DNA of 64,000 bases from Alphaproteobacteria bacterium (GTDB taxonomy: Bacteria; Pseudomonadota; Alphaproteobacteria; SHVP01): contig VGES01000007.1 in assembly GCA_016869765.1 (NCBI GenBank), forward strand, positions 13,708 to 77,707, given 5' to 3'. The translations under genes and the position numbers were made by a program. Shown here piece by piece: positions 2,938 through 20,722 of the stretch. Numbering within the stretch: position 1 is the first letter of the stretch; each line of letters starts with the position of its first letter. The notes beneath the pieces were generated by a model. The model ran no database searches and was not told the DNA's origin. It saw only the letters and a program-made list of their open reading frames with translations.

Positions 2938-3657
2938 TCATTGTGGGCTTGGCGAGGGCAACCCGGGGCCGGATCCGAGGACCCTTTGAATGAGCGCTTC
3001 CAATACTTGGAAATCCGTCAACGAGTCGATCTCGTAGGACTCGTCTTCTTCCATCTCGAACAGTCCTATCTTGCCGCCGAGCCGATTTTTCGTGGCAAGA
3101 AGGAGATCGGTTTTCGTGACATAGAGCGACCCCGTCTCCCGCCACCAGCGATCTTGAGGTGCGATGTCCTGGCGCCGTGGTCGACGGTGGTAGTCATAAA
3201 GAGCTTCAGGAGCGTGAGGATATCGCCAAAAAAAGTGGTTGTTCTGGCAAACGCTTAGGATTGAATCCGCGCTTTGTCGTTCGAATTCGGCGATAGCGCG
3301 ATCAATCGTGCCCGGTCGTCGTATCGGCGACGTTGCTTGCAGCAGAACGATCGCGTCGGGCTTGTATCCCGCGGTCGCAAGTTCCTCCACCGCATGAATC
3401 ATCGCCGATTCTGTACTGGCTTGATCGGTCGCCAGGGAAGCCGGCCTCATGAACGGCACATCAGCGCCCCAGTTACGGGCAACGTCAGAAATTTCCGGCG
3501 AATCGGTTGAAACGACCACCCGATCGATTGCTGACGACTGACGGGCCTGCTCGATCGTCCATGCAACGAGCGGCCGCCCGGCGATGAGGCGAATGTTCTT
3601 GCCCGGCACGCCCTTTGAGCCACCACGGGCTGGAATGAGCGCCAAATATCGGCTCAT
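2938..3657 (-). CDS. Acylneuraminate (CMP-nonulosonate) cytidylyltransferase, NeuA-like #1
   Basis: N-terminal LALIPARGGSKGVPGKNIRLIAGRPL matches the CMP-NeuAc synthetase signature. The ATG overlaps the stop of the upstream gene (ATGA). Confidence 0.8.
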   Translation of the reverse strand: MSRYLALIPARGGSKGVPGKNIRLIAGRPLVAWTIEQARQSSAIDRVVVSTDSPEISDVARNWGADVPFMRPASLATDQASTESAMIHAVEELATAGYKPDAIVLLQATSPIRRPGTIDRAIAEFERQSADSILSVCQNNHFFWRYPHAPEALYDYHRRPRRQDIAPQDRWWRETGSLYVTKTDLLLATKNRLGGKIGLFEMEEDESYEIDSLTDFQVLEALIQRVLGSGPGLPSPSPQ

Positions 3658-5258
3658 GCGGGGCTCTGCGCGAGTTGCGCGTTCTTGGCTCGCTCCGCAA
3701 GGCTGGCCAACGCAGGTTCCAGCGACTCCGCCAGTCGATCACAAGCTCGGGCTGCTGTGTCATCACCGTAGCCCATGAGATTCCGAACGGTAAATTCCCG
3801 CATGTCGAAACTCGATGATACCACCGCGCCGAGGAACCGTTCTCCTGCTCTGCGCTCGCCATCGTGGGGTTGCTCCAACTCCAGGGCCCACTGCAGCGCC
3901 CCGCGAAGGTCTTCCTCGCGAGTTATCGTTCTAGAGTTTGGCAATATTCGGAACAAGTTGTGGCGCCCAAAACAAACAACCCGCTTGCCGAGGATCGCGC
4001 CCTCGTGGCCCGCCGTGCCGCAGATCGTCGCTACCGCGCTGGCTTGCTTGATGATCTCTTGTCCCTTTTCCTCGATGTCGAGGAGTACGACATTCTTCAA
4101 TGTCTTGATTTGATCGTAGAAGCGATCGGGCCGTCGCCCGACTGCTGGATGATGCTCTTTTACTGCGAGACGCACTCCAGCAGGAAGGTCCCGTGAAAGC
4201 GAGACGATCGTTGCGAGTTGATAGGTCCACTCCGGGGACCGTCCTTGGAACCAAATTTCCGGTTCCACATGTAGCGCGAAGAAGACGAACCGTTGCCCGG
4301 CCAAATCGCTGAGCTTCGTCGTACAACGCCCCGTGACCTGTCGAAAGCTCCGGACGCGCCGGATCGCGAGGGCGACCATGTCTCGGTAGCGATATAGATC
4401 CGACTTGTGGTAGCCCGTGAGGTGCCATTGGACGTAGTTGCGAGTATGGGCAAGGATATCCCTCATCATGCCGGAGATTCTAAAGCGTCGGCGGGCCTCA
4501 TCGTTGAACAAGGCTCCCTGAAACGGGACGCCGGCGAGTTGTTCGTCTGGATTGAGGGGGGCGCCCGAGTGATATTTCGCGGCGGCCAGCTCACAGAAGC
4601 CGAACGTATCGGTCCAGTAGTAGAGGTTCTTGTGGCGTGCGGGAATAAAGTTCCTGACCAAAATTCCATGCCGTTCGGCAACGGTTCCCTGCAGGAGGTT
4701 GGCCTCGACCAAGGCCGTGATTTGAAGCGTCTGAAGAGCCGTTGCCCAGAGGCCTACCTGCTGGTTATAGGCTTCCAAGAGTTGCCAGTAGTCGGCGCCC
4801 TCTGAGTGTCGGGATCTCGGGTGGTAGAAGCCGCCAAGGGCATAACCCTTCCCGTAAAGGCGGTCGGGGACGGCCATCCAATTGTACGTCACGCCGTAGT
4901 TCTCTTCGTTTCGTCGCGCCGCCGCAACCGTCATCGCGCGATCCTCGACCATGGGGATCGGCATCGTCACGAGCGAGGGTATCACTTCGATCGTGTCGTA
5001 GAGATCGTCTGGTGCGCATGTGCGGAAGAGGTTCGCCGCCTCCCGGGAAGAAGCAAAAAGAACGAGGCGGCTGCCGAAGCGGCTTTTCAGTTCTCGCCCT
5101 AGCTGTGGGTAAAAGTGCCGGTACCATGGGTTACCTACGAGGCCAACGCACCGGAGCGCATCGGTCGTGGTCGGTCGCGAATTCACGACAACTCCAAAGT
5201 CCAACCGGCGGCGATGCGCAAAAGGGCGGTTCCGCTGTCGACGCGAAAGAAAGCGCAA
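3654..5258 (-). CDS. Large GT-B-like protein with K-x-HP motif (putative nonulosonate/Kdo transferase, capsule-polysaccharide-biosynthesis-like); start uncertain
   Basis: Long ORF with protein-like composition. Internal LAVKEHHPAVG...VATICGTAGHEGAILGKRVV resembles the HP-motif region of bacterial sialyl/Kdo transferases. The 76-nt overlap with the HAD gene suggests the true start is downstream of 5258. Confidence 0.35.
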   Translation of the reverse strand: MRFLSRRQRNRPFAHRRRLDFGVVVNSRPTTTDALRCVGLVGNPWYRHFYPQLGRELKSRFGSRLVLFASSREAANLFRTCAPDDLYDTIEVIPSLVTMPIPMVEDRAMTVAAARRNEENYGVTYNWMAVPDRLYGKGYALGGFYHPRSRHSEGADYWQLLEAYNQQVGLWATALQTLQITALVEANLLQGTVAERHGILVRNFIPARHKNLYYWTDTFGFCELAAAKYHSGAPLNPDEQLAGVPFQGALFNDEARRRFRISGMMRDILAHTRNYVQWHLTGYHKSDLYRYRDMVALAIRRVRSFRQVTGRCTTKLSDLAGQRFVFFALHVEPEIWFQGRSPEWTYQLATIVSLSRDLPAGVRLAVKEHHPAVGRRPDRFYDQIKTLKNVVLLDIEEKGQEIIKQASAVATICGTAGHEGAILGKRVVCFGRHNLFRILPNSRTITREEDLRGALQWALELEQPHDGERRAGERFLGAVVSSSFDMREFTVRNLMGYGDDTAARACDRLAESLEPALASLAERAKNAQLAQSPA

Positions 5259-5800
5259 CAGTTCCTTCGGGCAGCGTTTTCGTCCGACTCGCCATCCCCA
5301 ACTACCGCAACGCTGGCGCCTGGAAGCGCGGTCTCGGCCAAGATCGTCGCCAAGGTCTCGGGTTTCGAACGCGGGTAACCGTAGGCACGCGTGATGTACT
5401 TACTCCAACCACGTGCGCGCAGAATCTTGAGCAAAGAGGTTTCAGGGGTGTTGGAGCTCACGAAGAGCGTTGCAGACTGGCTTGCACTCATGATGACTTG
5501 TGTAGCGCCTTCCAATTCCGGGCAGTGCGATATCTTTTTGATCATGGCTCGATCGTAGGCTTTGACGTAGTAGGAAACGTCGGCTGAGGCGAGAGGCAGG
5601 CTCTTCCCGCGCATGTGCTCGATCATTCTCGGGATCGTCTGGTAGCGGGTGTCGTTGTCATTTGCGTTGGCCAACGCCTCTTCGACGCATGAGGCATGTT
5701 CTGGCGTTCGTGGAAACAGATCGAAGAAACCCTGCCGTTTGATGTCGTTGGAATCGACCAGGGTACCATCAAAGTCGAAAACGACCGCCTTATAGCGCAT
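5183..5800 (-). CDS. HAD-superfamily hydrolase (probable sugar-phosphate phosphatase)
   Basis: Motif I MRYKAVVFDFDGTLVDS (DxDGT). Start reassigned to the internal ATG at 5800, because the ORF-track start at 5926 lies deep inside the upstream NeuB-like gene. Confidence 0.7.
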   Translation of the reverse strand: MRYKAVVFDFDGTLVDSNDIKRQGFFDLFPRTPEHASCVEEALANANDNDTRYQTIPRMIEHMRGKSLPLASADVSYYVKAYDRAMIKKISHCPELEGATQVIMSASQSATLFVSSNTPETSLLKILRARGWSKYITRAYGYPRSKPETLATILAETALPGASVAVVGDGESDENAARRNCCAFFRVDSGTALLRIAAGWTLELS

Positions 5801-7328
5801 GTCGACGGCGAAAGTAGTTCGTCCAGTTATCGACGTTGGTCTTTCGCTTCGAGCGCTCCAAACGGGCGATTGCAGGATCTTCATAGAAGGAGTCGTTGTT
5901 GTAGTGCGTCGTCGATATCTCTTCAATGATGGCGCCGGTCAGGGTGTGGAACTTGTGCCAGCTTTCTGGTTCAACCAGGAATGTGTCGCCGGGCGTAAGG
6001 GAGAGGTGGAAGCCGTTCTTGACGATTTCGAGGTCTCCATCGATGAGTTGGAAGGTTTCTTCTTTCCTTTTGTGGAAGTGGTACGGATGCTGCTGTCGGG
6101 GAAGCTGGACGACCAGTTTCTTCGCGTATTCGCGATTGATGCAAGTGATAATCACGGCGCCATATTCGCGAAATCGCTTGAGGCCGTAGTGGTGGGAGAT
6201 TTCGATCGAGGCATCGGCGTTGATGTGGACGTTTGCCTGGTTGAGCATGCCGCGAACCTGCAGCATGATTTGATAGATCAGCTGATCGTCGGACACGGTT
6301 GGAAGCGACAGCCCGCCGGGCAACGGGGCCAACGCCGGGTAATCCTTATCGGCGACCAATCCTTCGCGCCAGCTTCCGCTGATCAGTTGGCCGTCCGAAA
6401 CCGGCATTGCGAAGAACACGTCGTCACGGGTCAGTACTTGACCCTTTGTCGTAGCCTGCTTCAGAAAGACCCCTCGCTTCAACTCAAGCAGGGTCCGTCG
6501 TTCTTCCGGTGAGGAAGGCGGTCGGTCGGGGGCCCCAAGCATGGTCTTTGCTTTCGCGTGGGAGGCAAGCCATGTTTCGATTTGGGCGGGCGTGGACGAG
6601 TAACCGTTCAGCGTGTAGCGGTCGTTACCAATGCCAACGTGACGCTCAAAGAGGCGAGCCCCTTTTGCAAGGGCGATCTTGACGGCGTCGACGTTGTTCG
6701 GGTCCTCGTGGGTTGACCAACCGATCGGGACGCTCCGATATCGGTTGACCATCGCGGAAATCTGGTTGAGTTGCAGAAGCTCGTCGGGTGTCGGGTAAAT
6801 CGAGACGCAATGCATCAGCGCGAAGTCGACCTTCTCTGCCTCGAGGAAATTTACCAACCAGTCGATTTCGGCAATGCGCAAACCCGCGGTGGACACGACG
6901 ACTGGCTTTCGGCTCTGGGCGACTCGTTCGAGCAATGGCCGGTCATCCGCGGAGCAACTTGCGACCTTGATGATGTCCAGGTCCATGTTTTCGATGACAT
7001 CGACAGATTCCTCGTCGAATGGCGTGCACATGGTCAGCAGACCGGCGTCTTTAACCGATTTGGCCAACGACCGAAAATCATCCATTGACAGCCGGGTTTC
7101 GGAAAATCGCTTGATGAACTTCAGGTCGGTGCGAGTTCGATAATCCGGATGAATGAAGGAATCGAGTTGCCGAAACTGGAACTTTAGCGCTCCCCGAACC
7201 TTGGCGGCACGACTGACGCTTCCCACTGCGCCGATGATCTGTTGAGCGTGGGCGAGGTCCCCTTGATGGTTGTTGGCCAGGTCGTATATGAACAATTCAT
7301 CGAAGCTGAAAGTTTTCATTCCCTGCAT
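5790..7328 (-). CDS. NeuB-family nonulosonate/ulosonate synthase #1 fused to a C-terminal cupin domain (512 aa)
   Basis: N-terminal ELFIYDLANNHQGDL...KFQ is NeuB-like and an SAF-like segment ELKRGVFLKQATTKGQVLTRDDVFF follows. An extra 150 aa or so follows, with cupin motifs HPYHFHKRKEETFQLIDGDLEI and LTPGDTFLVEPESWHKFHT. Confidence 0.75.
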   Translation of the reverse strand: MQGMKTFSFDELFIYDLANNHQGDLAHAQQIIGAVGSVSRAAKVRGALKFQFRQLDSFIHPDYRTRTDLKFIKRFSETRLSMDDFRSLAKSVKDAGLLTMCTPFDEESVDVIENMDLDIIKVASCSADDRPLLERVAQSRKPVVVSTAGLRIAEIDWLVNFLEAEKVDFALMHCVSIYPTPDELLQLNQISAMVNRYRSVPIGWSTHEDPNNVDAVKIALAKGARLFERHVGIGNDRYTLNGYSSTPAQIETWLASHAKAKTMLGAPDRPPSSPEERRTLLELKRGVFLKQATTKGQVLTRDDVFFAMPVSDGQLISGSWREGLVADKDYPALAPLPGGLSLPTVSDDQLIYQIMLQVRGMLNQANVHINADASIEISHHYGLKRFREYGAVIITCINREYAKKLVVQLPRQQHPYHFHKRKEETFQLIDGDLEIVKNGFHLSLTPGDTFLVEPESWHKFHTLTGAIIEEISTTHYNNDSFYEDPAIARLERSKRKTNVDNWTNYFRRRHAL

Positions 7329-7898
7329 CCTATCGTATCGTAGGCCTTCGCCATGAGGGCGACCCTCCCGTCGGACTGATCGCTATCCCGAAACAAGACC
7401 TCATCATAGGGGTTTCCACGGAGTCGTACGTCACTTGTCGCCGGCCGCCAGTAGGGGGTAAGAACCCTTCCGGCGTAGCGAAGATCAGCAACCCGCCTGA
7501 ACAATTTCGCTTGGGTCCGCGATGGCACGGGCTCGCGCGCGAATAGATTTCTGCGCGCTTCCGAACGCCGGTCGGCGCCAACAACGATCCAGTACGCCTT
7601 ACGCCTTGCTGAGGTGCATCGGCGATCCGTCGGGCCGCTGAACTGGATCGAGGAGCGTGAGTTCTCCCTTTCCCAGGGGGCGTCCCGTGATCGGCGTAGT
7701 TGAAGGGGGGCGCCAAGAGACACTGCAACATTCGACATTTTCGCTCGGCCACTGCGGGGCCATCCTCAGAATCGATCAAGGCGAACGTATTGGCGCTGAA
7801 AGGATTTCACACCTCACCCCCGGTGGGGGGAGGTGCACCAGCAGGTAACTTTTTCATTGGACCAAATTTGGGCCCAACAGTAGGTCGCCGCACGCGTT

Positions 7899-8639
7899 TC
7901 AGTCCGTCGAGGCCGTATCGGCGGAAGCGGAGTCACCGGAGCGGAACAACCATTCTGCGAAATGGAGGTCATGGACGTCGTCAATATTCACTACTGGGCG
8001 ATCCACGATGATGGCTTGGCATGATCTATCGATGATTTGCCCATGTTCCAGCAAGTGGGTGCGCTCGACCGCATAGCATAGCCCGTTACGGTGATAGTAG
8101 GCGGGGATCAGATGACGGTTGGAAAACTGTGTTCCATCGGCGACGTAGAAACGGATCCGACCATCGTCCGCCACCAAGAGCGTCTTCTGCGGAGTGAAGT
8201 GTGCCGGTGTGCGGGAGATAGTCGCCGCCGCAGCGTGACCGTCGACGGCAACTGCTCGAACTGTCCTTTCTGCGTCGTGCGAAATGCGAAGCGGACTTGT
8301 CGGCTCAAGCAATATTGAAACGTCAAATATCCGACCATAGTGGCACTCAGCTGCCCGCCAAGCGTGCTGCCACATCGCCACGGAGGTTGCATAGTCTCCT
8401 GCAAGTTCGGGTGGCCTGCGAAAAAAGTCGTCGAGACCATGACGTCTCGCCTCTTCGGCGATCATCTCGTCGTCGGTGGATATGAGGGCGGCATCCACCC
8501 ACGGGAGGGCCCGCGCGAACCGTGCAGCGCGCCCAACTAGACTTGTTCCGCCGACGGTTCTCAGGTTTTTTCCAGGGATTCCCTTAGAGCCTCCGCGTGC
8601 CGGCACGACGGCGAGGATCGACTTCCCTGCAATCGTCAT
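7899..8639 (-). CDS. Acylneuraminate (CMP-nonulosonate) cytidylyltransferase, NeuA-like #2
   Basis: ILAVVPARGGSKGIPGKNLRTVGGTSL signature. A 4-nt overlap with the upstream Gfo/Idh/MocA gene. Confidence 0.8.
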   Translation of the reverse strand: MTIAGKSILAVVPARGGSKGIPGKNLRTVGGTSLVGRAARFARALPWVDAALISTDDEMIAEEARRHGLDDFFRRPPELAGDYATSVAMWQHAWRAAECHYGRIFDVSILLEPTSPLRISHDAERTVRAVAVDGHAAAATISRTPAHFTPQKTLLVADDGRIRFYVADGTQFSNRHLIPAYYHRNGLCYAVERTHLLEHGQIIDRSCQAIIVDRPVVNIDDVHDLHFAEWLFRSGDSASADTASTD

Positions 8640-9652
8640 TCTAGTTGGACACCCTCTAACGACACACGACGACCCTCGGAGCTGCTCGTACGAGCTGCTT
8701 CGATGATCTCAAGCACACGCCGCCCATCGGATGCCGTGCATGTTGGCGATGTTCTTCGAGCACAGACGTCAAGAAACTCCCTAGCAACGGCCAAGAACAT
8801 GTCATTGCGCTCGCAGCAAAAGTCCTTGTCCTTCCACCCCGGTGCTGTCTCGGTGCTTACGGAAATTCGGTTCGGATTCTCGCGCCAAATCAACGTCCCA
8901 TGATCACCCAGGAACGTAATGGTCTTCTCGTGTGGTCGACCAAGAATATCGAGGTGAAGCGCAACTCGAAGCCCGTTTCGGTAACCGACCGACATGTCGA
9001 CATTGTCGTCGACGTCGATCTCAAGTTGGCCGAGCTTGGCGACGTCGGCATGCACCCAAGATGGTCTTCCGAACAGCCAAAGCATAACGTCAATCCAATG
9101 ACTCTCGTCCAAAAGAGCCCCGCCCCCCAACGCCTTGCTCGACATGAAGAAGTCTTGGTAGCGTTCCCATGGATGCCAGTCGGCGAGATGAGCTGAGATG
9201 ACCATACGTACGTGGCGGAGCGTCCCGATAGTGTTGGCCTCAATCAAATCGCGCGCCTTGCGGAGCGGCTCCCACCAACGCCAAGTGTAGCCCAATAGAA
9301 GCGGCGCTAGGCCGGTTTCGGTCAAGCGCTCCAAGCGGACGGCACCCTGCAGCTCCGGCGAGATTGGTTTCTCCAGCAGGACGGGGATTCCGCGCTGCAA
9401 GGCTTCTGTCGCTTGGTCAACATGAAACACTGGTGGCGACCCAATCACCACGCCGGTTAAGTCGTGGTGAGTGGCCAACGCCTCCGACACGTGCGGGTGA
9501 CCCGCGACCGTTGGAACCTCGCTCGACAGTTCAGCGCGTCGATCGGCCCTCGGGTCGACGCAAGAAATTCGACAGCCAAGCGTCGCGAGGTTTCTCGCGT
9601 GACGTCTTCCAACGCTACCACTTCCGACGATCAAGATATGAGGGCCATGCAT
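8636..9652 (-). CDS. Gfo/Idh/MocA-family NAD(P)-dependent oxidoreductase
   Basis: N-terminal Rossmann ILIVGSGSVGRRHARNL and a family-typical EKP motif (LLEKPIS). Confidence 0.75.
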   Translation of the reverse strand: MHGPHILIVGSGSVGRRHARNLATLGCRISCVDPRADRRAELSSEVPTVAGHPHVSEALATHHDLTGVVIGSPPVFHVDQATEALQRGIPVLLEKPISPELQGAVRLERLTETGLAPLLLGYTWRWWEPLRKARDLIEANTIGTLRHVRMVISAHLADWHPWERYQDFFMSSKALGGGALLDESHWIDVMLWLFGRPSWVHADVAKLGQLEIDVDDNVDMSVGYRNGLRVALHLDILGRPHEKTITFLGDHGTLIWRENPNRISVSTETAPGWKDKDFCCERNDMFLAVAREFLDVCARRTSPTCTASDGRRVLEIIEAARTSSSEGRRVSLEGVQLE

Positions 9653-11242
9653 CTAGCGTATTCCGGTGACCATCGTTTGATAGGCGTTAGGATCGAAGTC
9701 CGCGCGAACGAAAAGCGGCTCGGTTGCCTTCCAACTGTGTAGAGCCCTCGAGAAAGACTCGTGTGAGGTAACGTGCCTAGTCGGGAGGCCAAAACCTTCG
9801 GCATACCGGAGCCAGTCCCGATGGGGAAACAGGAGGCTACGCTGGTCCAACCCATCTCGAATCGCTCTCACACGAATCGAACCGAACCCGCCGTCGCTCA
9901 TCAAAATGATTGCTATCGGTAGGCGAGCGGATACAGCTATTTCAATGTCGGCCCAATACATTCCGATACCGCCGTCGCCGATCAGCAACACGGTGGGAAC
10001 TGTTGAATCAACAAGAGCAGCAGCAAGTGCCATCGGTAGTCCAACACCCATGTCTCGTCCTGAACCCGAACCCAGGTAGGTGTTTGGCCCCGTGGCTTGC
10101 CAGGCATGTTCTGCAATCGTGCAAAAGTAGCCAGTATCGACGACAAGCCGTACGTTGCTGCCGAATCGATTTTGGATGGCCGCGCATGCCGGCCCTGGCA
10201 GAAAGGGTTCCGCGTCGAATCGGCGTTTGAGAGCGGCGCGATGGCGACTGAGCTCTTCCAACCCCCAAGACCGTGCTCGTAGCGATTCGAATACCAACTG
10301 AACGGAGTTTGGTTCGAGCCGATGATCGAACGGGATTTTCGAGCATGCCGCCGGGATATCGTCGACACCGATTGATGAACAGGGGAAGCGCCCGTAGTTT
10401 AAGAGTTCATTCGCGCGCAGGCCGAGTCCGACGACCAAGTCCGCAGCGGACAAGATTGTTGCTTCGGGAACAAGCTCCAGTCCGACTCCTGTATAAACGC
10501 CGGCGGCATGCTTTAGGCGCTCGTCAATCAGGCCTTTGGCCGAAGCCGTTGTGAAAACTGGGACGTTGAGCGCAGCCAGTTCCGGGCCCCACCCACGTCG
10601 CAACGCTAGCGCTCCGGCGACCACTACGGGCCGCTTCGCGCGCTCGACCAACTCAAGTCCGGCCCTATCTCGGGACGAAGTTTCTGGTTCGAAAGGTGGG
10701 GGCAGCTCGCTCTTCGGTGGCTTCGGGGCGAGTTGGAAGACGACGGGGCCGGGCGGTTCCGTTGCAGCCCAGCGTGCCATCGCCCGATAGCTTGGTCCAT
10801 CCTCGGACAACGATCGAATTCCCTTGCTGACCGCCATAACGAGGCCCTTATGGTCCAGCCACTTGTGTACCGTATTGGTTGGCTGTTCCGCCGCGTATGC
10901 TTCCGCCACGGCGACCATCGGGAAGCCTTCAAGACAGCAAGCCGCAAGCCCGGGCACCATGTTGGCAAGACCGGGACCTTTGATGGCAACTGCCACACCA
11001 GGGATTTCGGTCAACCTGCCCAGTGTACCCGCCATTATTGCGGCGGTTCCCTCGAAATGTGTCGTACGGAAGTTGACGCCCCGGCGACTCAATGCGTCGA
11101 TCAACGAAAGCGTTGAACCACTGCCGGGAATTCCAAAAACATGCTTCAACCCTGCCGAGGCAATTTCATCTGCTAGACGCGCGATGCTCACGGCGTTGAA
11201 AGACCAAGGTGATGAGCGACCTTTTCCGCGGCTCTTGCGCAA
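9653..11242 (-). CDS. Thiamine-pyrophosphate enzyme, acetolactate-synthase-like (three-domain ALS/YerE-type); start uncertain
   Basis: N-terminal HVFGIPGSGSTLSLIDAL (Pyr domain). C-terminal TPP motif LLIGDGGIGMYWADIEIAV...MSDGGFG. The 55-nt overlap with the upstream gene suggests a later start. Confidence 0.75.
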   Translation of the reverse strand: MRKSRGKGRSSPWSFNAVSIARLADEIASAGLKHVFGIPGSGSTLSLIDALSRRGVNFRTTHFEGTAAIMAGTLGRLTEIPGVAVAIKGPGLANMVPGLAACCLEGFPMVAVAEAYAAEQPTNTVHKWLDHKGLVMAVSKGIRSLSEDGPSYRAMARWAATEPPGPVVFQLAPKPPKSELPPPFEPETSSRDRAGLELVERAKRPVVVAGALALRRGWGPELAALNVPVFTTASAKGLIDERLKHAAGVYTGVGLELVPEATILSAADLVVGLGLRANELLNYGRFPCSSIGVDDIPAACSKIPFDHRLEPNSVQLVFESLRARSWGLEELSRHRAALKRRFDAEPFLPGPACAAIQNRFGSNVRLVVDTGYFCTIAEHAWQATGPNTYLGSGSGRDMGVGLPMALAAALVDSTVPTVLLIGDGGIGMYWADIEIAVSARLPIAIILMSDGGFGSIRVRAIRDGLDQRSLLFPHRDWLRYAEGFGLPTRHVTSHESFSRALHSWKATEPLFVRADFDPNAYQTMVTGIR

Positions 11243-12135
11243 ACCCGCGCCACGGCATCGGGGCTAAAGCCACCGCAATGGGGCGTGATAAGAAGATTGT
11301 CGTGATGCCTCGCGTAATTCACCAGCGGGTGATCGGCGATGTCAGGCTCGCCGTCGAGAACATCAACGGCAGCCGCAGCCAACTTCCCCGTCTTGAGCGC
11401 ATCTAGCAACGCGAGTTCATCCACGACGGCACCCCGAGAAGTATTGATCAGGATGGCGGTGGGCTTCATCGCCGCGAACTGGCTCGCGCCCAGGAGGCCG
11501 CGTGTCGACTCGCTCAAATGGACGTGGATTGACACGACATCTGAGCGGGCTAGGACTTCCTCCAAAGTCCCGCGCTCGACGTCGGCGGGCCAAGGTTCGA
11601 TATACGGGTCCGTACCAAGGACGGTCATGCCAAACGCCCGGCCATATCGAGCCATCCACTGCCCAATCCTGCCGCAACCAATCAGCCCAAGAACGCGACC
11701 GTTGAGCATCAAGCCAGGAAAGTCTTCGCGTACCCAAGATCCAGATCGAACATGCGCTATCGCTGGCACGAGGCGGCGAGCGCAAGCGAGAACCAGAGCC
11801 CAGCTCAATTCGGCCGCGGGGGTGAGGTTATTCAGCAACGGTCTATCTTCGCGCAACGTTAGAACAACAATCCCGTTGCTTGCCGCCGCCGAATGATCGA
11901 TGTGATCTGACCCTGTGGTTGCAGTCGAAATGATGCGCAACTGCTTTGCTCGCGTAAGGACCTCGGCAGTCAGCCGAACTTTCATAGAGGCGTCGATCAG
12001 GGCGTTAGCGGTGGTTAGTGCGTTGGCGACCGCAATTTCCGTAGCCGGCACGTGTTTGATCTTTGCCCGCACGTTGAGAACGTCTTTTACGGCGACGAAT
12101 CCTGCAGTTGCGCCGATGTACGCAACTTCGATCAC
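11188..12135 (-). CDS. D-isomer-specific 2-hydroxyacid dehydrogenase family (NAD-binding)
   Basis: GLIGCGRIGQWMARYGRAFGMTVLGTDPY glycine-rich NAD fold and the catalytic region ...RGAVVDE...LITPHCGG. Confidence 0.75.
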   Translation of the reverse strand: MIEVAYIGATAGFVAVKDVLNVRAKIKHVPATEIAVANALTTANALIDASMKVRLTAEVLTRAKQLRIISTATTGSDHIDHSAAASNGIVVLTLREDRPLLNNLTPAAELSWALVLACARRLVPAIAHVRSGSWVREDFPGLMLNGRVLGLIGCGRIGQWMARYGRAFGMTVLGTDPYIEPWPADVERGTLEEVLARSDVVSIHVHLSESTRGLLGASQFAAMKPTAILINTSRGAVVDELALLDALKTGKLAAAAVDVLDGEPDIADHPLVNYARHHDNLLITPHCGGFSPDAVARVCARAAEKVAHHLGLSTP

Positions 12136-13310
12136 ACGTGATCTCCGAAGGAGAGGCGCTTCTGAACCTGAAAGGTCGAGGTAGCGAGTAGGTCGGCGAT
12201 TCGCTTGCCCGCGTGGCCGTCTCCGAATCGTGTCGACCGGCGGTAGCGGCCGTGATCGATCTGAAAGTGAACGGCCCTCTCGATGTCCCTGGCTTCGTAC
12301 CCTACGTCCCTGACATTCTCATCTCGTTCGCGCCCAGCCTGGCGCGTCCCGATGTTTACGGCTGGCACGCCCAAGAACGACCCTTCGCGGAGCGCGCTGG
12401 ATGAATTCCCGACGAGGCAAGACGCGTGATAAATCAGACGTGCGTAGTCTTCGACCGAGAAGTTGCGGTAGAAATGAATCGGCGCCGAAGGGTGCTGTTC
12501 GCGAAATTGGCGGAGCCCTTTGGAGATGTCATCCGAGCCCGCATCAACATTGGGCCATAACCATATCGCTTGAAGGCCGATGCGAAGCACCGCAGACAGA
12601 GTCTCGCGGATTTGTTTTAGGCCGTTGCCGTACTCGGTGGTTACCGGGTGCTGGAGCACGACGACATAGCGGCGGCTGGGGTCAATCGTTGCGCCAACGC
12701 CCTTTCCACCGCTGAAGAAATCGGCGCGCAGGGATAGGTCAAGCGCAGCCAGGACATCAATTGATGGGCAGCCGGTGAGGTGGACGGTTGCCCGCTCTTC
12801 GCCCATCCGCACCAGGTTCTCCGCTGCTAGCGCGGTTGCGGGAAAATGAATGTGTGCAAGCTTAGTAACAGCATGCCGTACACTCTCATCGATCGACCCC
12901 GTGACCTCCCCTCCCTGGGTATGAGCAACCGGTATATTCATGTAGGCGCCCGCAATTGCGGTGGCGATCGTCTCGAATCGGTCAGCCACGGTCAGCACTA
13001 CGTCGGGTCGAATGTTCTCAAAAGTGGTTGCAAGCTCCATGATGGCCAACCCTGTCGACTTGGCCATTGTCGTTGGGGTTTCCCCCTCGACAATGGAATA
13101 AACCGTCGCAACGGGCGAAAACCCATCGCGGGCGATCACCTCGCTGACGTTTCCGAATCGCCAAAGCAGCGCAGATGCCCCGATCACAAGCTGAAGTTCG
13201 AGTCTCGGATGCTCGGTGATCGATCGCAAGACCGTCTTGATCCGGCCGTAGTTCGCGCGGCTATTGACGACGACGCAAATTTTGCGCCGACTCCCCGTCG
13301 AATGGCTCAT
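12132..13310 (-). CDS. neuC: UDP-N-acetylhexosamine 2-epimerase, hydrolysing (NeuC/LegG-like)
   Basis: KICVVVNSRANYGRIKTVL...HTQGGEVTGSIDESVRHAVTKLAHIHF matches the hydrolysing UDP-GlcNAc 2-epimerase family. Confidence 0.75.
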   Translation of the reverse strand: MSHSTGSRRKICVVVNSRANYGRIKTVLRSITEHPRLELQLVIGASALLWRFGNVSEVIARDGFSPVATVYSIVEGETPTTMAKSTGLAIMELATTFENIRPDVVLTVADRFETIATAIAGAYMNIPVAHTQGGEVTGSIDESVRHAVTKLAHIHFPATALAAENLVRMGEERATVHLTGCPSIDVLAALDLSLRADFFSGGKGVGATIDPSRRYVVVLQHPVTTEYGNGLKQIRETLSAVLRIGLQAIWLWPNVDAGSDDISKGLRQFREQHPSAPIHFYRNFSVEDYARLIYHASCLVGNSSSALREGSFLGVPAVNIGTRQAGRERDENVRDVGYEARDIERAVHFQIDHGRYRRSTRFGDGHAGKRIADLLATSTFQVQKRLSFGDHV

Positions 13311-13361: not shown

Positions 13362-14513
13362 CTAGGAATCCGATTGGACATCATCCCACGTGAGTATTCG
13401 AAGTTCGTTAACGGATCGGCGAAGGCGTTTGCCAACGAGGCGTGGCAAATCGGACTCCGGAATACCGCCCCCGGGTTTCTTCATCGTCAACATCTCGGCG
13501 GTAAGGACTGTGCCGGCAGACAATTCGCGTGATGGCGCGACGCTCTTGGTGAAAGTCGAACGCATCGTTGACAGCTCGCGAGCCATCGAGTCCTTGTCGA
13601 TCGGATTCGCGTCCATCGTCCAGATGCTGGATCGAGCTTCCGACAATCGCCGAAACTCGGCGATCGTCAAAGAAGACGTGGTGTCAGGGCCAAACATACG
13701 ACGATCGAGAGTTAGGTGGGCTTCGACGAGGTCGAACCCCCGCATGATCGTGGCGATCCCCGGCCAGATAGTACCGGAATGATCTGAAAGCCCCACTGGA
13801 CACCCGAAGCGCCGACGATACTCATTCATGACGTTCAGTCCGACCTCAGTCAACGGGGTCGGATACTTGCTAGTACACTGCAGGAGGGCGATGGCACTAC
13901 CGCTGCCGACGATCCGATGAACGGCTCGGCTGACGTCCTCGTATGTACACATTCCAGTGGAAAAGATTATTGGCAGCTTTGTCGCGGTCATTGCCTCGAT
14001 AAGGTAGGACGATGAAAATTCCCCGGAGCCGACCTTCCATGCAGGGACACCAATTTTCTCCAGCAGCTCGATAGCTTCGACCGAGAACGCGCTGCTCAAG
14101 AAAACCAGATTTCGCTCTCGAGCATGATCGGAAAGACCCAACCAATGCTCGGGAGAAAACTCCATTCGTCTCCAATAGTCATAGCGGGTCTGATCTTGGC
14201 GACTAAATCGCACGCGAAAAGGCTCGTCCAGTGTCGACTCGGCGGTGGCTATGTGCGTCTGGAACTTGACCGCGTCAGCTCCCGCTTCAGCGGCGGCGTC
14301 CACGAAGGCATGTGCCATTCCCAGCGATCCATCGTGCGCTTGGGCGATCTCGGCGATGAGGAAGGGCGGATGGCCGGATCCGATGTTGCGCCCGCAAATG
14401 GAGAACGTGTCATGGGCCCTCGAGTTGGTAGCTTTGTCCACGCCGTTATACCCGCGCCTCCGCGGCCGTCGCTCTATCTGGCGCGTCGGGCGGCCGCAAA
14501 GAACCGTTCTCAA
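13362..14513 (-). CDS. NeuB-family N-acylneuraminate/nonulosonate synthase #2 (with SAF domain); 5' end probably shorter
   Basis: IGSGHPPFLIAEIAQAHDGSLGMAHAFVDAAAEAGADAVKFQTH plus a C-terminal SAF segment LSAGTVLTAEMLTMKKPGGGI. The ORF-track start overlaps the ABC gene by 68 nt. An in-frame GTG at 14441 lies 4 nt after the ABC stop. Confidence 0.8.
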   Translation of the reverse strand: MRTVLCGRPTRQIERRPRRRGYNGVDKATNSRAHDTFSICGRNIGSGHPPFLIAEIAQAHDGSLGMAHAFVDAAAEAGADAVKFQTHIATAESTLDEPFRVRFSRQDQTRYDYWRRMEFSPEHWLGLSDHARERNLVFLSSAFSVEAIELLEKIGVPAWKVGSGEFSSSYLIEAMTATKLPIIFSTGMCTYEDVSRAVHRIVGSGSAIALLQCTSKYPTPLTEVGLNVMNEYRRRFGCPVGLSDHSGTIWPGIATIMRGFDLVEAHLTLDRRMFGPDTTSSLTIAEFRRLSEARSSIWTMDANPIDKDSMARELSTMRSTFTKSVAPSRELSAGTVLTAEMLTMKKPGGGIPESDLPRLVGKRLRRSVNELRILTWDDVQSDS

Positions 14514-16286: not shown

Positions 16287-17186
16287 TCAGAGTCGCAGGG
16301 CATTCGAACGATATTCGACAAATACGGAGTGGCGCTCGTGCCCTGGGGAGAATATCCCCCTAGCGTGCCAACCAAAGGTGTTCGCAATCATAAGCGTATT
16401 GGCGTCGCAGCTCAGAGTCACCTTCCTCAGGCCCCACTTCTCGAGATCGACATCGGTGATGCGCGGCGCGCGCTGTCCTATGCCAACGCTGTTCGAATAC
16501 TCGAACAGGAGCCGGCGCGGATGAAGGCGATGGGACTTGGGGACGAAGACAAAGGCAGCGCTATCCGCATCCGTTGGCCGCAGGTACAAATATGCCTTGG
16601 TGATCGAATAGAACGTATCCGAATGCAGGTCACTATTCGTATCTTCGGTATAGGCAGCGGTAGGACCGCCGTCGTGTAACAGGGCGCGCTCAAACCGCGC
16701 CTTGAACATACCGCGACGATACAGCGTTTCCTCTGTTTGGCCCTCGTGGGCCATGACGATTCTCACGAATCGTTCGTCACGCAAGACTGAACGCGTCGTT
16801 TCTGGATAAATACTCTCGTTCCCGCTGATCGTTTCCGAGTGAACAACGGTTCTTACACGATCGAGTAGGGGTAATATTCTTTGTTCCCGCAGCCGCTGTT
16901 GCGCTGCGTCGAATTCTCGCCGAACCAATGCAAGGTCGCGTTCGCTCAGAAAATTGGGGATCGTGCAGTAGCCCTGCTCTATCAATTGACGAGTGGGGGT
17001 CTCTTTCGTTGATCGATCTCGCATGCGACGCACGTGCAAGAGAGTGCGGGCCGCGCAAATTCGCGCCAGTTGAAGGCCTAGGCGGTTCAGCGCCGCAGAT
17101 GGGATCAGCTTGTCGTTGGACAGGATATTTGCCAGTTGACTCATGTCGATATCCGGATCGCGATCAAGACGAAACAGGCGTTCCAA
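16287..17186 (-). CDS. Putative Fe(II)/2-oxoglutarate dioxygenase, PhyH-like; start uncertain
   Basis: GYCTIPNFLSERDL start-like motif and an HSD...H arrangement (LHSDTFYS ... FGWHARG) typical of phytanoyl-CoA-dioxygenase-type folds. Weak. Confidence 0.45.
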   Translation of the reverse strand: MERLFRLDRDPDIDMSQLANILSNDKLIPSAALNRLGLQLARICAARTLLHVRRMRDRSTKETPTRQLIEQGYCTIPNFLSERDLALVRREFDAAQQRLREQRILPLLDRVRTVVHSETISGNESIYPETTRSVLRDERFVRIVMAHEGQTEETLYRRGMFKARFERALLHDGGPTAAYTEDTNSDLHSDTFYSITKAYLYLRPTDADSAAFVFVPKSHRLHPRRLLFEYSNSVGIGQRAPRITDVDLEKWGLRKVTLSCDANTLMIANTFGWHARGIFSPGHERHSVFVEYRSNALRL

Positions 17187-17204: not shown

Positions 17205-17981
17205 TCATTCTCGGGCGATCGAAATAGGTTTCTGTTCCACGTGAGCATTGATCGCAATCCATGCGGGGTTTTGCCGCAGGCATTCGAGGCAGTCCTCCAA
17301 GTTGAACCAGGGCCGCTCCTTGTGCAGAACCAGCAGCATCCGATCGATGAGCTCAAAGTCCGCGGCCGTATCAACGGTCCAACGGTGCCGACTTTGATCC
17401 GATGAATAGGCGACGTTGTGCAGACGAAAGCGGCTTGGCTGGCGCCACACAAAGAGAGTCACATGTTCACGATCCTCGGGATTGCTGGCTTCGGCGTGGG
17501 CCAATTCGAGCACGCTACGCGGCAGAACCTCGGTATCCATCCCCCGGGGATAGGTCGGGATCAACCGATTGCTCACATAGTCGACATCGGCTCGGCGCCC
17601 TAGAAACGCTTCGATGGTCCGATCGATAACGGCAGGGTCGATCAAGGGGCAATCTGAAGTGACGCGAACGACAATATCAGCGTCAGAGTGTCGAGCCGCG
17701 CCAACATAGCGAGCCAAGACATCTTTCTCCGGGCCGCGAAACACCTCTAGCCCCATCGCCCGAGATAGTTCGACAATCGGCAAGTCGTCATCCTTGTCCG
17801 TCGTAGCGACGACGACGGCATCAGCAAGTCGAGAGCGCGCTATACGTTCCAAGTGATGGCCGAGAAGCGACTTTCCCGCCGAGACCTTCATCACCTTTCC
17901 CGGCAATCGGGTCGAGCCCACTCGAGCCTGGGTAACGATGACGACTCTCGATCCGGAACGTTCGTTCATCCCATTTTTCAA
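17205..17981 (-). CDS. CMP-sugar cytidylyltransferase, PseF/SpsF-like (third cytidylyltransferase)
   Basis: VVIVTQARVGSTRLPGKVMK is the PseF/SpsF/KdsB-type motif (ARxGSxRLPGK). Confidence 0.7.
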   Translation of the reverse strand: MKNGMNERSGSRVVIVTQARVGSTRLPGKVMKVSAGKSLLGHHLERIARSRLADAVVVATTDKDDDLPIVELSRAMGLEVFRGPEKDVLARYVGAARHSDADIVVRVTSDCPLIDPAVIDRTIEAFLGRRADVDYVSNRLIPTYPRGMDTEVLPRSVLELAHAEASNPEDREHVTLFVWRQPSRFRLHNVAYSSDQSRHRWTVDTAADFELIDRMLLVLHKERPWFNLEDCLECLRQNPAWIAINAHVEQKPISIARE

Positions 17982-18140: not shown

Positions 18141-18860
18141 TCAGGCGCGGTCGGTCCATGATGGGCTTCTTGCGTGACGCCAACCGACCAGGTCGAACCA
18201 AACCGTAATTGCAAGAGCTCTCAAGATTCGTGCATTGGCACGCAAGCGACGGCCAAAGCGTGGGGCTCCCGAACGCTGAGATACCGGAACGTTGATAAGG
18301 CGATGACGTGCACCGGCGGCCAAGCTCGCCGACGCAAGTTCCGTGCCGATCAGACGGTAGCGGTCGAAGCAACCGTGTTTTCGGTATAACGCCGTGTTGT
18401 ATCCCTTGAGGCCGCAGAGAATATCGGGAACGCCATGACGCCATCGCGCGTACTGATTGAACAAGTACTCGGCGGTCCGCGCCGCTGCAGGTCTTTCGCC
18501 AATCACGAGATCGGCCTCGCCGCTAAGCAAGATAGCCAGTAGACTGGGCACAGCCGTTGGTTGATGCTGTCCATCGGCATCGAACGTGACGACGATGTCA
18601 GCACCTAGGGCCTCGGCTTTCTCGAAGCCCGACTGCAGGGCGGCGTCATAGCCGCGGTTACTGGGGTGGCGTACCACCAAGGCACCAGCCGACTCCGCGA
18701 GCGCGCCTGTCGCATCGGTAGAACCATCATCAACTACGATCGGTCGACCAAATGCAATGAGCGAACCTACGACCCGACCAATCGTCTCCGCTTCGTTGAG
18801 TGCCGGTATAACGATGACGCTATTCAACGTCGCGCAACAATACGCAACTGCCCTCGGCAA
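18141..18860 (-). CDS. Glycosyltransferase family 2 (short, DPM1/GtrB-catalytic-domain-like)
   Basis: VIVIPALNEAETIGRVV...VVDDGSTDAT (DxD region). The ORF-track start at 18860 is a TTG. An alternative TTG lies at 18827. Confidence 0.75.
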   Translation of the reverse strand: MPRAVAYCCATLNSVIVIPALNEAETIGRVVGSLIAFGRPIVVDDGSTDATGALAESAGALVVRHPSNRGYDAALQSGFEKAEALGADIVVTFDADGQHQPTAVPSLLAILLSGEADLVIGERPAAARTAEYLFNQYARWRHGVPDILCGLKGYNTALYRKHGCFDRYRLIGTELASASLAAGARHRLINVPVSQRSGAPRFGRRLRANARILRALAITVWFDLVGWRHARSPSWTDRA

Positions 18861-19890
18861 CGCTGCGTCGCGTCACTCTGCCGATTAGCTCACCGATGCG
18901 GTAAGGCGGCAAAGCGTCTCTTGGGCATGGGCGAAGTACGATCAGGTCGCGTTCGACTATCCGATGGCCCTCCGGCAGTGGACGACGGGCTCGAATAGCT
19001 CGGCGCTGTAGGACGACAGTTTCCCGTTCATTCTCCATGACTCTTTTTTCGTCGGTGCCCAGGGCTTGTTCGAGTTCGCGTGTGCGGTCGACCATTTCTT
19101 GCCATGACCTAGGATCCATCGAGAAGGCGTGGTCCGGCCCTTTTCTGGAGAGATCATCTGTGAAGTGCTTCTCGATCGCTCTCGCGCCCAACGCGACCGC
19201 ACCGAGGACCGTGGCATGACCAGGAGTATGGTCTGAGAGGCCGAGGACCAAGCCTTCGAACTCGCGGGCGTAAGTCTTTAGGACGTTGAGGGCGACGTGC
19301 CGAAAATTCTCCAGCGCGGCCGTGTAGTTCGTGTTGCATTGCATTAGGACGATGTCTTGTGTCCATCGGCGCACGATCTCGACCGCGGACCGGACTTCAT
19401 GCATTTCTGATGCGCCTGTCGCAAGCAATATCGGTTTTCCGGTTCGAGCCATCGCTTCAATGCTGGCATGCCAAGTGATGTCACCGGATCCAACCTTCCA
19501 CGCACACACATGCTTTGAAAGGTCATCGAGGAGGTCGAGGTCGTAAGGCGCGGTAAAATAGTCGATTCCTGCATCATCGCACGTTTCCTTGAGTATCGGG
19601 CTCCAATCCTGCGGTATTGATGCAGCGCGATAGACCTCCTCGACGGACTTTTCCCATTTGGCTTGGTGGGACTGTTGCTCTCCGAGATCTCGGAACCCCT
19701 TCCCCGAGACGATCGTCTCAGCGCGAAAATTCTGAAACTTTGCGGCATTGGCACCCGCGCTTGCGCAAAGGCGGATCAAATCCTTGGCGCGTTCGATGTC
19801 TCCGTCATGGTTCGCAGCAATGTCGGCGATGAAATAGGTGGGCGAAGTGTCACCAACCTCATGACGACCTATTCGAATCGATGCGGCCAT
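18820..19890 (-). CDS. NeuB-family nonulosonate synthase #3 (PseI/LegI/NeuB-like, with SAF domain)
   Basis: IGRHEVGDTSPTYFIADIAANHDGDIERAKDLIRLCASAGANAAKFQ. C-terminal SAF-like GHRIVERDLIVLRP. Confidence 0.8.
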   Translation of the reverse strand: MAASIRIGRHEVGDTSPTYFIADIAANHDGDIERAKDLIRLCASAGANAAKFQNFRAETIVSGKGFRDLGEQQSHQAKWEKSVEEVYRAASIPQDWSPILKETCDDAGIDYFTAPYDLDLLDDLSKHVCAWKVGSGDITWHASIEAMARTGKPILLATGASEMHEVRSAVEIVRRWTQDIVLMQCNTNYTAALENFRHVALNVLKTYAREFEGLVLGLSDHTPGHATVLGAVALGARAIEKHFTDDLSRKGPDHAFSMDPRSWQEMVDRTRELEQALGTDEKRVMENERETVVLQRRAIRARRPLPEGHRIVERDLIVLRPCPRDALPPYRIGELIGRVTRRSVAEGSCVLLRDVE

Positions 19891-19930: not shown

Positions 19931-20722
19931 TTACTTCGACGTCGCAAGATACTGGCGCACAAACTGATTGCCCGGAGCGGTCGGATCCGGGTTGCGGTCC
20001 ATGGACATGGAAGCCCGAGCGCTGCGAAGATAAGGGACGTGATTGAGTTCGCTCCAACGCCCCACCAATGTCCAGCGTATGGTGGAACTGGAATTGGGCA
20101 CAGATCCATGAAAAAGGAACGGATGAAACACCAAGGCATCGCCCGCCGCCAAGTCCAATGTGACAACTCTCTCTTCGTCGATCAATGAAAGGGGAAGGGA
20201 CCAGTAGTTTTGTGGTTCCTCGACCCGATGGTGGACGTGCAGCCCCGATCGGTGTGAACCCGGGACGACGCGGAGTCCTCCACGATTTCCCCCGGTATCG
20301 GTTAGCGGAATCCAGATGTTTAGATTCATCAACGACATCAACTCAAGTTCCTGGTGCATAGGGAGGAGACGGTCGTCGCTGGGGTCGTCGATTCGCACCT
20401 GCATGTACCCAGCAAGAAGTGGCGTGCCATAGAGCTTTCGGCCAAATGCGAGAACGGTTTCGTTGGATAGCGCATGTCGTACGCCATGGAGCATGCCGAG
20501 GACGTTGTAGCAGTACGCTTTGATCTCCGGGTGCCTCGTCTTTAGCTGCAAGTACTTCGCATCGACTCCGGCGTGGTCAGTTATCCTTTCCCCGATGGCA
20601 CTCAAAGAGGTGTCAAACACTCTTTCGATCTGATCGAAGATGTCGGAAATCGAGTCGTTGGACAAAAGGCCCCGAAAGACCGCATACCCGTTGCGATCGT
20701 AGTCGTCATCGATTTGGGTCAT
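19931..20722 (-). CDS. Phytanoyl-CoA dioxygenase (PhyH) family Fe(II)/2OG oxygenase
   Basis: NIWIPLTD (metal HxD-equivalent region) and C-terminal FHPFLFHGSVPNSSSTIRWTLVGRW, typical of PhyH-family hydroxylases. Confidence 0.6.
   Translation of the reverse strand: MTQIDDDYDRNGYAVFRGLLSNDSISDIFDQIERVFDTSLSAIGERITDHAGVDAKYLQLKTRHPEIKAYCYNVLGMLHGVRHALSNETVLAFGRKLYGTPLLAGYMQVRIDDPSDDRLLPMHQELELMSLMNLNIWIPLTDTGGNRGGLRVVPGSHRSGLHVHHRVEEPQNYWSLPLSLIDEERVVTLDLAAGDALVFHPFLFHGSVPNSSSTIRWTLVGRWSELNHVPYLRSARASMSMDRNPDPTAPGNQFVRQYLATSK

Follow-up and report, generated by a model that had tools for sequence, protein, structure and literature searches.

The window analysed in the present work is a stretch of 64,000 nucleotides from an alphaproteobacterial contig (VGES01000007.1, positions 13,708 to 77,707), and the gene under study, on its minus strand, encodes a 512-amino-acid protein in which a synthase of the NeuB family is joined to a C-terminal cupin domain resembling the D-lyxose/D-mannose isomerases. 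An annotation made from the letters without database searches, referred to below as the original prediction, had described a NeuB-type synthase fused to a cupin and followed by a phosphatase of the HAD family. The features belonging to these two genes are:

5790..7328, minus strand: NeuB-type synthase with SAF-like domain and D-lyxose-isomerase-like cupin, 512 amino acids (open reading frame and translation, Pfam, AlphaFold2, Foldseek)
6525..7301, minus strand: NeuB TIM-barrel, approximately residues 10-268 (Pfam; phmmer match to structure 3G8R; conserved residues)
6309..6509, minus strand: SAF-like (antifreeze-like) domain, approximately residues 274-340 (superposition on 3G8R; R285 invariant; weak SAF matches in homologues)
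5832..6290, minus strand: D-lyxose/D-mannose-isomerase-like cupin, approximately residues 347-499 (profile against the PDB, Foldseek, invariant residues)
5183..5800, minus strand: HAD phosphatase of subfamily IA, overlapping the synthase gene by 11 nucleotides (Pfam Hydrolase and HAD_2; motifs DFDGT and GDGESD)

The fused synthase and isomerase-like domains

The fusion is not an artefact of a sequencing frameshift, a danger to which the original prediction had itself drawn attention, because the reading frame runs from an ATG start continuously over all 512 residues, because an identical protein (P0001) is present on an independent contig, and because 76 homologues, with identities down to 31%, align with the window protein from end to end. 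All of the motifs that had been quoted in support of the fusion (ELFIYDLANNHQGD, HPYHFHKRKEE and PGDTFLVEPESWHKFH) are found in the translation, and the union of a NeuB domain and a catalytic-looking cupin in one protein is borne out by Pfam, by the structural model and by residue conservation.

The NeuB domain is matched by Pfam at residues 47-265 (PF03102, E 1.2e-40, 140 bits against a cut-off of 22.1). The best sequence match of the synthase is 3G8R (phmmer, E 5e-88), a structural-genomics entry from Chromobacterium violaceum described as a "probable spore coat polysaccharide biosynthesis protein E", which is the closest solved structure but has 350 amino acids and lacks the cupin domain. 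In an alignment of 77 sequences, to which all residue counts for the fused protein refer, K49, Q51, S146, Y178, E228 and H230 are invariant, as are R53, R74 and R285, and K121, S124, S205 and H207 are conserved in at least 90%. We take the conserved barrel residues to correspond to the phosphoenolpyruvate- (PEP-) and metal-binding residues of Neisseria meningitidis NeuB. The N-terminal motif, which had been regarded as divergent from the canonical one, does differ, but as the signature of a subfamily: its ANNH motif is common to the window protein and 3G8R, its acidic position is retained (glutamate in 46 of the 77 sequences, aspartate in 31), and the metal and PEP residues are conserved. The curated equivalog models are not reached, either for N-acetylneuraminate synthase (TIGR03569, 130.2 bits against a cut-off of 399.65) or for PseI (TIGR03586, 115.8 bits against 340.25), and by these sequence measures the synthase is classed as a member of the NeuB Pfam family that lies outside both curated groups.

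An AlphaFold2 model built on the homologue alignment (predicted local distance difference test score 95, predicted template modelling (TM) score 0.89) superposes with its residues 1-336 on the whole of 3G8R, with a TM score of 0.96 and a root-mean-square deviation of 1.3 Å over 335 columns (Foldseek), and the two proteins are 43% identical in this alignment. Because the superposition covers the whole of 3G8R, the model indicates that the SAF-like domain is structurally present, although the window protein has no match to Pfam SAF (PF08666); the SAF model weakly matches two homologues at the corresponding position (E 0.0038 and 2.6e-4). The description of a complete NeuB and SAF region is supported for the barrel by the Pfam match and for the SAF part by the modelled fold.

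The cupin exceeds the Pfam threshold for Cupin_2, as had been anticipated (29.8 bits against a cut-off of 27.2, residues 409-463), and both the H-x-H-x4-E motif and the histidine of the second cupin motif are present. Its closest counterparts by profile and by fold are, however, not the RmlC/FdtA/WxcM-type ketoisomerases and epimerases with which it had been grouped, but the D-lyxose/D-mannose aldose-ketose isomerases. Pfam Lyx_isomer (PF07385) gives a partial match at residues 428-484 with 35.5 bits against a cut-off of 20.8. When a profile of the last 170 residues is compared with the PDB, it finds 2Y0O (YdaE of Bacillus subtilis) at E 5e-18, covering positions 7-173 of 175, and the Thermofilum D-lyxose isomerase 7NZO at E 1.7e-15. 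In Foldseek, the top fold matches that follow the NeuB-type synthases are all D-lyxose isomerases (3KMH/3MPB, which is Z5688 of Escherichia coli O157, 7NZO-7NZQ and 2Y0O), with E near 1e-12 and TM scores up to 0.72. RmlC and FdtA have no match in the window protein in Pfam and do not occur among these top fold matches, and in a single-sequence search of the PDB the best D-lyxose isomerase has an E of 1.9e-5, the FdtA structure 2PA7 one of 0.58.

The active site of the Thermofilum D-lyxose isomerase consists of K62, H75, H77, K86, E88, H143, E156 and D163 (PMC8378251). Seven of these eight residues are identical in the window protein, where K62 to E156 correspond in order to K403, H417, H419, K422, E424, H458 and E470; the eighth, D163, falls one or two alignment positions from D479. 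Within the family, H419, E424, H458 and E470 are invariant, the position of K422 is lysine or arginine in every sequence, and lysine at 403 (70 of 77) and aspartate at 479 (67 of 77) are strongly retained, while position 417 is histidine in 64 sequences and glutamine in 13. The known D-lyxose/D-mannose isomerases thus have the same fold, ligands and catalytic residues, but they are free-standing, catabolic and active on free sugars, whereas the window domain is fused to a synthase and, unlike them, the fused cupin bears an extra invariant tail, R495-K496. The curated isomerase equivalog NF051472 is not reached (16.1 bits against a cut-off of 350). Judged from sequence, then, the cupin is a relative of these isomerases and not an orthologue, and it is predicted to be a catalytically intact-looking relative of the aldose-ketose isomerases.

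The conserved gene module

The same architecture is found well beyond the window. A search of 1.84 billion representatives returned 304 clusters at E < 1e-30, and more than 100 clusters at 50% identity are full-length fused proteins of about 500 amino acids; in a 90%-clustered database there are more than 6,000 matches, the best 120 of which all have the same three Pfam domains. The database names are "N-acetylneuraminate synthase family protein" or automatic composites such as "SpsE/D-lyxose ketol-isomerase", and no paper describing a NeuB–cupin/lyxose-isomerase fusion was found, though the architecture is visible in databases. The hosts of the 80 genome loci that were collected include Hyphomicrobiales, Aestuariivirgaceae, Rhodospirillaceae, Magnetovibrio blakemorei, Desulfobacterota, Nitrospira, Marinimicrobia and Cyanobacteria, among others, and the nearest relative of the window protein (72% identical) comes from a Hyphomicrobiales genome bin. 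Two apparent architectural variants were rejected. The 881-residue P0098, which seems to be a triple fusion of oxidoreductase, NeuB and cupin, is a frameshift read-through in which the last 24 oxidoreductase residues lie in another frame (tblastn), the frameshift being near the 3' end of the oxidoreductase (L004:10001-12646); a single assembly has this protein on two of its contigs. P0149 (356 amino acids), a seemingly cupin-less homologue, is cut by a contig end.

The HAD gene lies immediately downstream of the synthase, as originally described, with an ATG at 5800 (MRYKAVVFDFDGTL...) that produces the 11-nucleotide overlap with the synthase stop, and it ends at 5183. Its product is matched by the Pfam models Hydrolase (50.3 bits) and HAD_2 (44.6 bits), contains the catalytic motifs DFDGT and GDGESD, and has D9, D11, K146, D169 and D173 conserved in 21 orthologues. 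It is 34-38% identical to the HAD proteins of the conserved module. The KdsC-like HAD-IIIA model TIGR01662 is not reached (23.3 bits against a cut-off of 44.6), and a PDB profile search with the module HAD finds generic subfamily-IA phosphatases only. A HAD gene stands directly downstream of the synthase in 68 of the 76 loci with enough flank, usually overlapping it, and P0124 (723 amino acids) carries a HAD domain in frame behind its cupin, joined by a linker that looks natural.

The partners of the synthase were mapped by tblastn onto the 80 loci, and they follow a fixed order: a TIGR04396-family protein where present, a Gfo/Idh/MocA oxidoreductase, the NeuB-isomerase fusion, the HAD phosphatase and a CTP_transf_3 cytidylyltransferase. 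The oxidoreductase, upstream of the synthase in 73 of the 74 loci with enough flank, is the most constant of them; a PDB profile search with it finds generic family members only. The cytidylyltransferase is linked to the synthase in most loci. The TIGR04396-family gene occurs in 44 of the 80 and encodes a protein of about 455 amino acids that matches the NCBIfam model for a "surface carbohydrate biosynthesis protein" (323 bits against a cut-off of 125), has no Pfam match and weakly matches the BFO_1060 glycosyltransferase domain; on account of these two matches it is likely to be the module's transferase. A literature search on TIGR04396 found nothing. In a 4.4-Mb genome (L003:12672-21530), at least seven tandem TIGR04396 paralogues of about 455 amino acids directly follow the module cytidylyltransferase, and two that were compared are 95% identical.

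The core module contains no kinase, aminotransferase or nucleotide-sugar enzyme, and no kinase or other substrate-supplying enzyme was found among its recurrent neighbours, which comprise transferase-like proteins (ELM1-type included), sulfotransferases, ABC transporters, methyltransferases, an epimerase/dehydratase, a PLD-like protein, an asparagine-synthase-like protein and an aminotransferase. The input of the core must therefore be a central metabolite. Sulfotransferases recur beside the module, as a Sulfotransfer_2 pair in five loci and as Sulfotransfer_1/3 elsewhere and in the window (window 21488-22612; L001:12903-13601; L031 and L034-L037 downstream of the module; L090:999-2730), and the glycan that carries the module's sugar may be sulfated.

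Contigs of T4-like phages, with genes for neck, terminase and sheath (L091-L093, for example L091:2097-4894), also encode a partial module, in which a module-type oxidoreductase (39% identity) accompanies a cupin-less NeuB protein of the same subfamily (44%) and a cytidylyltransferase. Protein searches of phage and plasmid collections gave no match, the phage module likewise has no match in the GenBank phage collection, and a viral fold library yielded only generic cupin and Kdo8P-synthase matches.

The conserved partners upstream of the synthase were overlooked in the original prediction, the interpretation of which was otherwise partly right. In the window they are arranged as follows:

8636..9652, minus strand: Gfo/Idh/MocA oxidoreductase, a divergent counterpart of the module enzyme (Pfam; 24-27% identity to the module type)
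7899..8639, minus strand: CTP_transf_3 cytidylyltransferase, the likely partner making the sugar nucleotide with cytidine monophosphate (CMP) (Pfam E 1.2e-13)
7329..7898, no strand: 570-nucleotide gap between cytidylyltransferase and synthase, probably non-coding (no family matches, flat codon-position GC content)

The module is thus rearranged here to oxidoreductase, cytidylyltransferase, gap, synthase-isomerase and HAD, an order shared with L076 and L089. The oxidoreductase and cytidylyltransferase genes overlap by 4 nucleotides, and the latter is 35-42% identical to the module cytidylyltransferases, closer than a second copy at 2938-3657, and its 103 bits do not reach the PseF equivalog cut-off of 205.7. 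Two open reading frames in the region of the gap, 7330-7779 (149 amino acids) and 7316-7738 (140 amino acids), were rejected as genes, having no family matches and flat codon-position GC content; they are rich in arginine and proline and have no homologues in 93 loci. Transcription of the synthase and HAD genes may start from a promoter within the gap.

A proposed pathway and its alternatives

The reading we favour, with somewhat better than even confidence, is that the fused protein is a two-activity enzyme central to a self-contained pathway for an activated 3-deoxy-2-ulosonic acid, laid out on the plan of the pathway to 3-deoxy-D-manno-oct-2-ulosonic acid (Kdo). It builds on domain identities, catalytic residues and gene linkage, which are observations, and from these we infer in what order the reactions run, that the substrate is phosphorylated and which sugar is made. 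The cupin, as a metal-dependent aldose-ketose isomerase, would most likely act before the condensation and make its aldose substrate, turning a common ketose phosphate into a manno- or lyxo-configured aldose phosphate, in the likeliest case fructose-6-phosphate into mannose-6-phosphate. The NeuB domain would then condense the aldose phosphate with PEP to a ulosonate phosphate, the likeliest being the 9-phosphate of 3-deoxy-D-glycero-D-galacto-non-2-ulosonic acid (Kdn); the overlapping HAD phosphatase would take off the phosphate, the nearby cytidylyltransferase would form the CMP-sugar, and a TIGR04396/BFO_1060-type or capsule-type transferase would attach the sugar to a surface glycan. In its simplest instance the pathway would run from fructose-6-phosphate through mannose-6-phosphate, Kdn-9-phosphate and Kdn to CMP-Kdn. 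The oxidoreductase, in the least certain step, would tailor the sugar by oxidizing or epimerizing a hydroxyl, as ElaA does on CMP-legionaminic acid. Fusion of the two activities would serve to pull an unfavourable isomerization and to hand over the open-chain aldehyde.

The cupin is proposed as the aldose supplier because the core matches the plan of the Kdo pathway step for step. NeuB-type enzymes use manno- or lyxo-configured aldoses, which are the products of D-lyxose/D-mannose isomerases. A phosphorylated substrate is favoured because of the linkage and fusion of the HAD gene, the lack of a kinase in the module, and the autotrophic hosts such as Nitrospira, in which sugar phosphates would be plentiful and free ketoses would not. 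The original prediction had read the HAD gene as a sign of a phosphorylated intermediate; the linkage is upheld by the 68 loci and the one fusion, and the further step to a route like those through Kdn-9-phosphate or N-acetylneuraminic acid- (Neu5Ac-) 9-phosphate is plausible only. The product is probably Kdn-like, given the manno-specific isomerase type and a precedent in Serratia, and since ElaA is the best precedent for the oxidoreductase, the analogy suggests that the final sugar is not plain Kdn but a keto or epimeric derivative. The oxidoreductase and HAD profiles are generic, so computation does not fix the sugar.

Comparison with known systems brings out both the familiar logic and the new form. 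The Kdo pathway (KdsD, KdsA, KdsC, KdsB) has the same number of steps, namely ketose phosphate isomerization, PEP condensation, HAD phosphatase and CMP activation; its cytidylyltransferase is homologous to that of the module (CTP_transf_3), and Kdo8P synthase is a distant structural relative of the NeuB barrel (Foldseek E about 1e-9 to 1e-10). The module differs in that its isomerase is a cupin rather than a SIS-domain protein, its synthase is of the NeuB family, the two are fused, its HAD is of subfamily IA rather than of the KdsC type, and there is an extra Gfo/Idh/MocA oxidoreductase. The Kdn-9-phosphate and Neu5Ac-9-phosphate routes (BT1714/BT1713 of Bacteroides thetaiotaomicron; animal NANS/NANP) likewise combine a NeuB-family synthase, a HAD phosphatase and a CMP-sugar synthetase, and Kdn does not require amino-sugar enzymes; the module HAD has no specific match to theirs, however, and mannose-6-phosphate is only a presumed substrate here. 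To our knowledge, synthases of the BT1714/NANS type have no fused isomerase and no linked oxidoreductase. The protein would work like the Kdo or the Kdn-9-phosphate pathway, but it cannot be filed in either.

In the KL1/KL2 capsule loci of Serratia marcescens, NeuB (a 2241-bp open reading frame) has a fused COG1082 sugar phosphate isomerase/epimerase domain, and Serratia strains that have just neuA and neuB produce Kdn (PMC9000132). There too an isomerase-type domain is fused to NeuB and a cytidylyltransferase adjoins. The two fusions look independent, because the COG1082 domain is unrelated to cupins and no protein of the length of the Serratia NeuB is found among the 150 best representatives. 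ElaA of Acinetobacter baumannii KL49 is a Gfo/Idh/MocA enzyme that oxidizes the C8 hydroxyl of CMP-legionaminic acid during 8-epimerization (PMC13656337). Likened by description, the ElaA/ElaB/ElaC system resembles the window in that the oxidoreductase adjoins the CMP-nonulosonate synthetase, as do 8636-9652 and 7899-8639, but the module has no partner short-chain reductase.

Several points weigh against the proposed pathway. The characterized D-lyxose isomerases act on free sugars, not on sugar phosphates (PMC8378251). The HAD gene is missing from eight of the 76 loci, and the HAD protein has no specific match to Kdn-9-phosphate, Neu5Ac-9-phosphate or Kdo-8-phosphate phosphatases. Plain Kdn as the product would leave the near-universal oxidoreductase without a function. 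On the phage contigs a cupin-less relative of the synthase is accompanied by the oxidoreductase and the cytidylyltransferase; the synthase is therefore more closely associated with the oxidoreductase than with the isomerase, and the oxidoreductase does not merely feed the isomerase. In the window itself the partners are rearranged and far more divergent (24-42% identity) than the synthase (72%).

If the same architecture instead worked on free sugars, fructose or xylulose would be converted to mannose or lyxose, NeuB would make a free ulosonic acid, and the HAD protein would serve elsewhere. Bacterial NeuB and PseI do use unphosphorylated aldoses, N-acetylmannosamine in the case of NeuB. The unphosphorylated substrates of every characterized D-lyxose isomerase (PMC8378251), the eight loci and the phage version that lack the HAD gene, and the want of a specific family assignment for the HAD protein point the same way. 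Such a scheme would leave unexplained why the HAD gene is adjacent and usually overlapping in 68 of 76 loci and fused in P0124, and it would call on free ketoses, which are unlikely pool metabolites in autotrophs such as Nitrospira; we consider it improbable. A little less improbable, though still unlikely, is that the mechanism is as proposed and the sugar is not a Kdn-type nonulosonate but an undescribed ulosonic acid, for example a C8 acid (from xylulose-5-phosphate by way of lyxose-5-phosphate), a C10 acid (from sedoheptulose-7-phosphate), or a derivative whose keto group or epimeric centre is set by the oxidoreductase. Plain Kdn leaves unexplained both the presence of the oxidoreductase in 73 of 74 loci and its retention without the cupin; the synthase falls well short of the curated cut-offs for NeuB and PseI, D-lyxose isomerases take pentoses as well as hexoses (PMC8378251), and mass-spectrometry surveys of environmental bacteria list ulosonic acids that are unassigned (PMC8157484). 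No particular sugar is directly supported, however, and Kdn is the sugar with which the one published fusion of NeuB and an isomerase is associated (PMC9000132).

The remaining alternatives concern the cupin itself. That it is an idle sugar-binding, regulatory or oligomerization domain on an ordinary NeuB-type synthase would accord with the existence of cupin-less members of the same NeuB subfamily, which presumably work (3G8R, L090, L091), and with the replacement of the first metal histidine by glutamine in 13 of 77 sequences. The conservation of the metal ligands and of the catalytic lysine, glutamate and aspartate down to 31% identity is nevertheless the pattern expected of an active enzyme, and we regard an idle cupin as highly unlikely. 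Even less credence is given to an RmlC/FdtA/WxcM-type ketoisomerase or epimerase that would alter a stereocentre on a nucleotide-sugar precursor or product: such cupins are common in sugar pathways and a distant homologue, P0227, has a marginal FdtA match (E 0.0038), but the window protein has none, its top cupin folds are all D-lyxose isomerases, the isomerase residue set is conserved, and the core module lacks a nucleotide-sugar-forming enzyme.

Returning to the two-activity pathway, it would be one of a known kind in a new form, widespread in environmental bacteria. The way in which phages, predators and immune systems perceive a bacterial surface is decided by nonulosonic and related acidic sugars, and the known biosynthetic routes to these sugars come almost all from pathogens. 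Here a compact module of four or five genes, found in at least 100 clusters at 50% identity in several phyla of environmental bacteria, would build a CMP-activated sugar from central metabolism without amino-sugar steps. Should that sugar be Kdn, the module would represent a major route to it in bacteria and could help to account for how often mass spectrometry detects Kdn-type sugars in environmental microbes; any other product would be a new sugar. We suggest, tentatively and with rather less than even confidence, that the module makes an undescribed ulosonic acid distinct from Kdn, Kdo and the amino nonulosonates, which would be drawn from a central ketose phosphate, would differ in chain length, in a stereocentre or in a keto group set by the oxidoreductase, and would be common on the surfaces of Nitrospira, Desulfobacterota and Hyphomicrobiales while also being encoded by T4-like phages. 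A fused isomerase-synthase would in addition be attractive for the one-pot synthesis of ulosonic acids from cheap ketoses.

The surrounding surface-glycan island

The whole region is a surface-glycan island: it adjoins the Kdo transferase WaaA and a WecA-like gene, and also holds an ABC transporter and a sulfotransferase. The other features of interest are:

2938..3657, minus strand: second cytidylyltransferase, in the same gene string as the synthase (CTP_transf_3 E 1.6e-27; PseF 144 bits, below 205.7)
3654..5258, minus strand: 534-amino-acid protein, possible transferase, start codon uncertain (Pfam Capsule_synth, KpsC/KpsS type, E 0.0018, below cut-off)
12132-13310: NeuC-type hydrolysing 2-epimerase (above curated cut-off)
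13362-14513: further NeuB and SAF synthase
17205-17981: third cytidylyltransferase
18820-19890: further NeuB and SAF synthase
30307-31590: PseB dehydratase (above cut-off)

Because the island contains two more NeuB and SAF synthases, a third cytidylyltransferase, NeuC and PseB, the one locus may make up to three different ulosonic acids. The 534-residue protein, whose gene lies downstream in the same gene string as the synthase, has no homologue in the fetched loci. The gene string of the synthase ends with a B12-binding radical-SAM enzyme (1256-2863), and a radical-SAM/SPASM enzyme lies deeper in the island (22711-23826); such enzymes are unusual in sugar clusters and may carry out C-methylation or other radical tailoring. 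A thiamine-diphosphate enzyme resembling acetolactate synthase and a D-2-hydroxyacid dehydrogenase, which could provide an unusual acyl or branched substituent, are encoded at 9653-12135, between the oxidoreductase and NeuC and outside the conserved module. PhyH-type 2-oxoglutarate/Fe(II) dioxygenases (16287-17186 and 19931-20722), one of which weakly matches a "sporadic carbohydrate cluster" oxygenase model, adjoin the third cytidylyltransferase and the third NeuB, and a DUF4910/DUF2172/HTH_47 protein (28066-29388, Pfam E 2.7e-103) stands among the sugar-nucleotide genes of the island.

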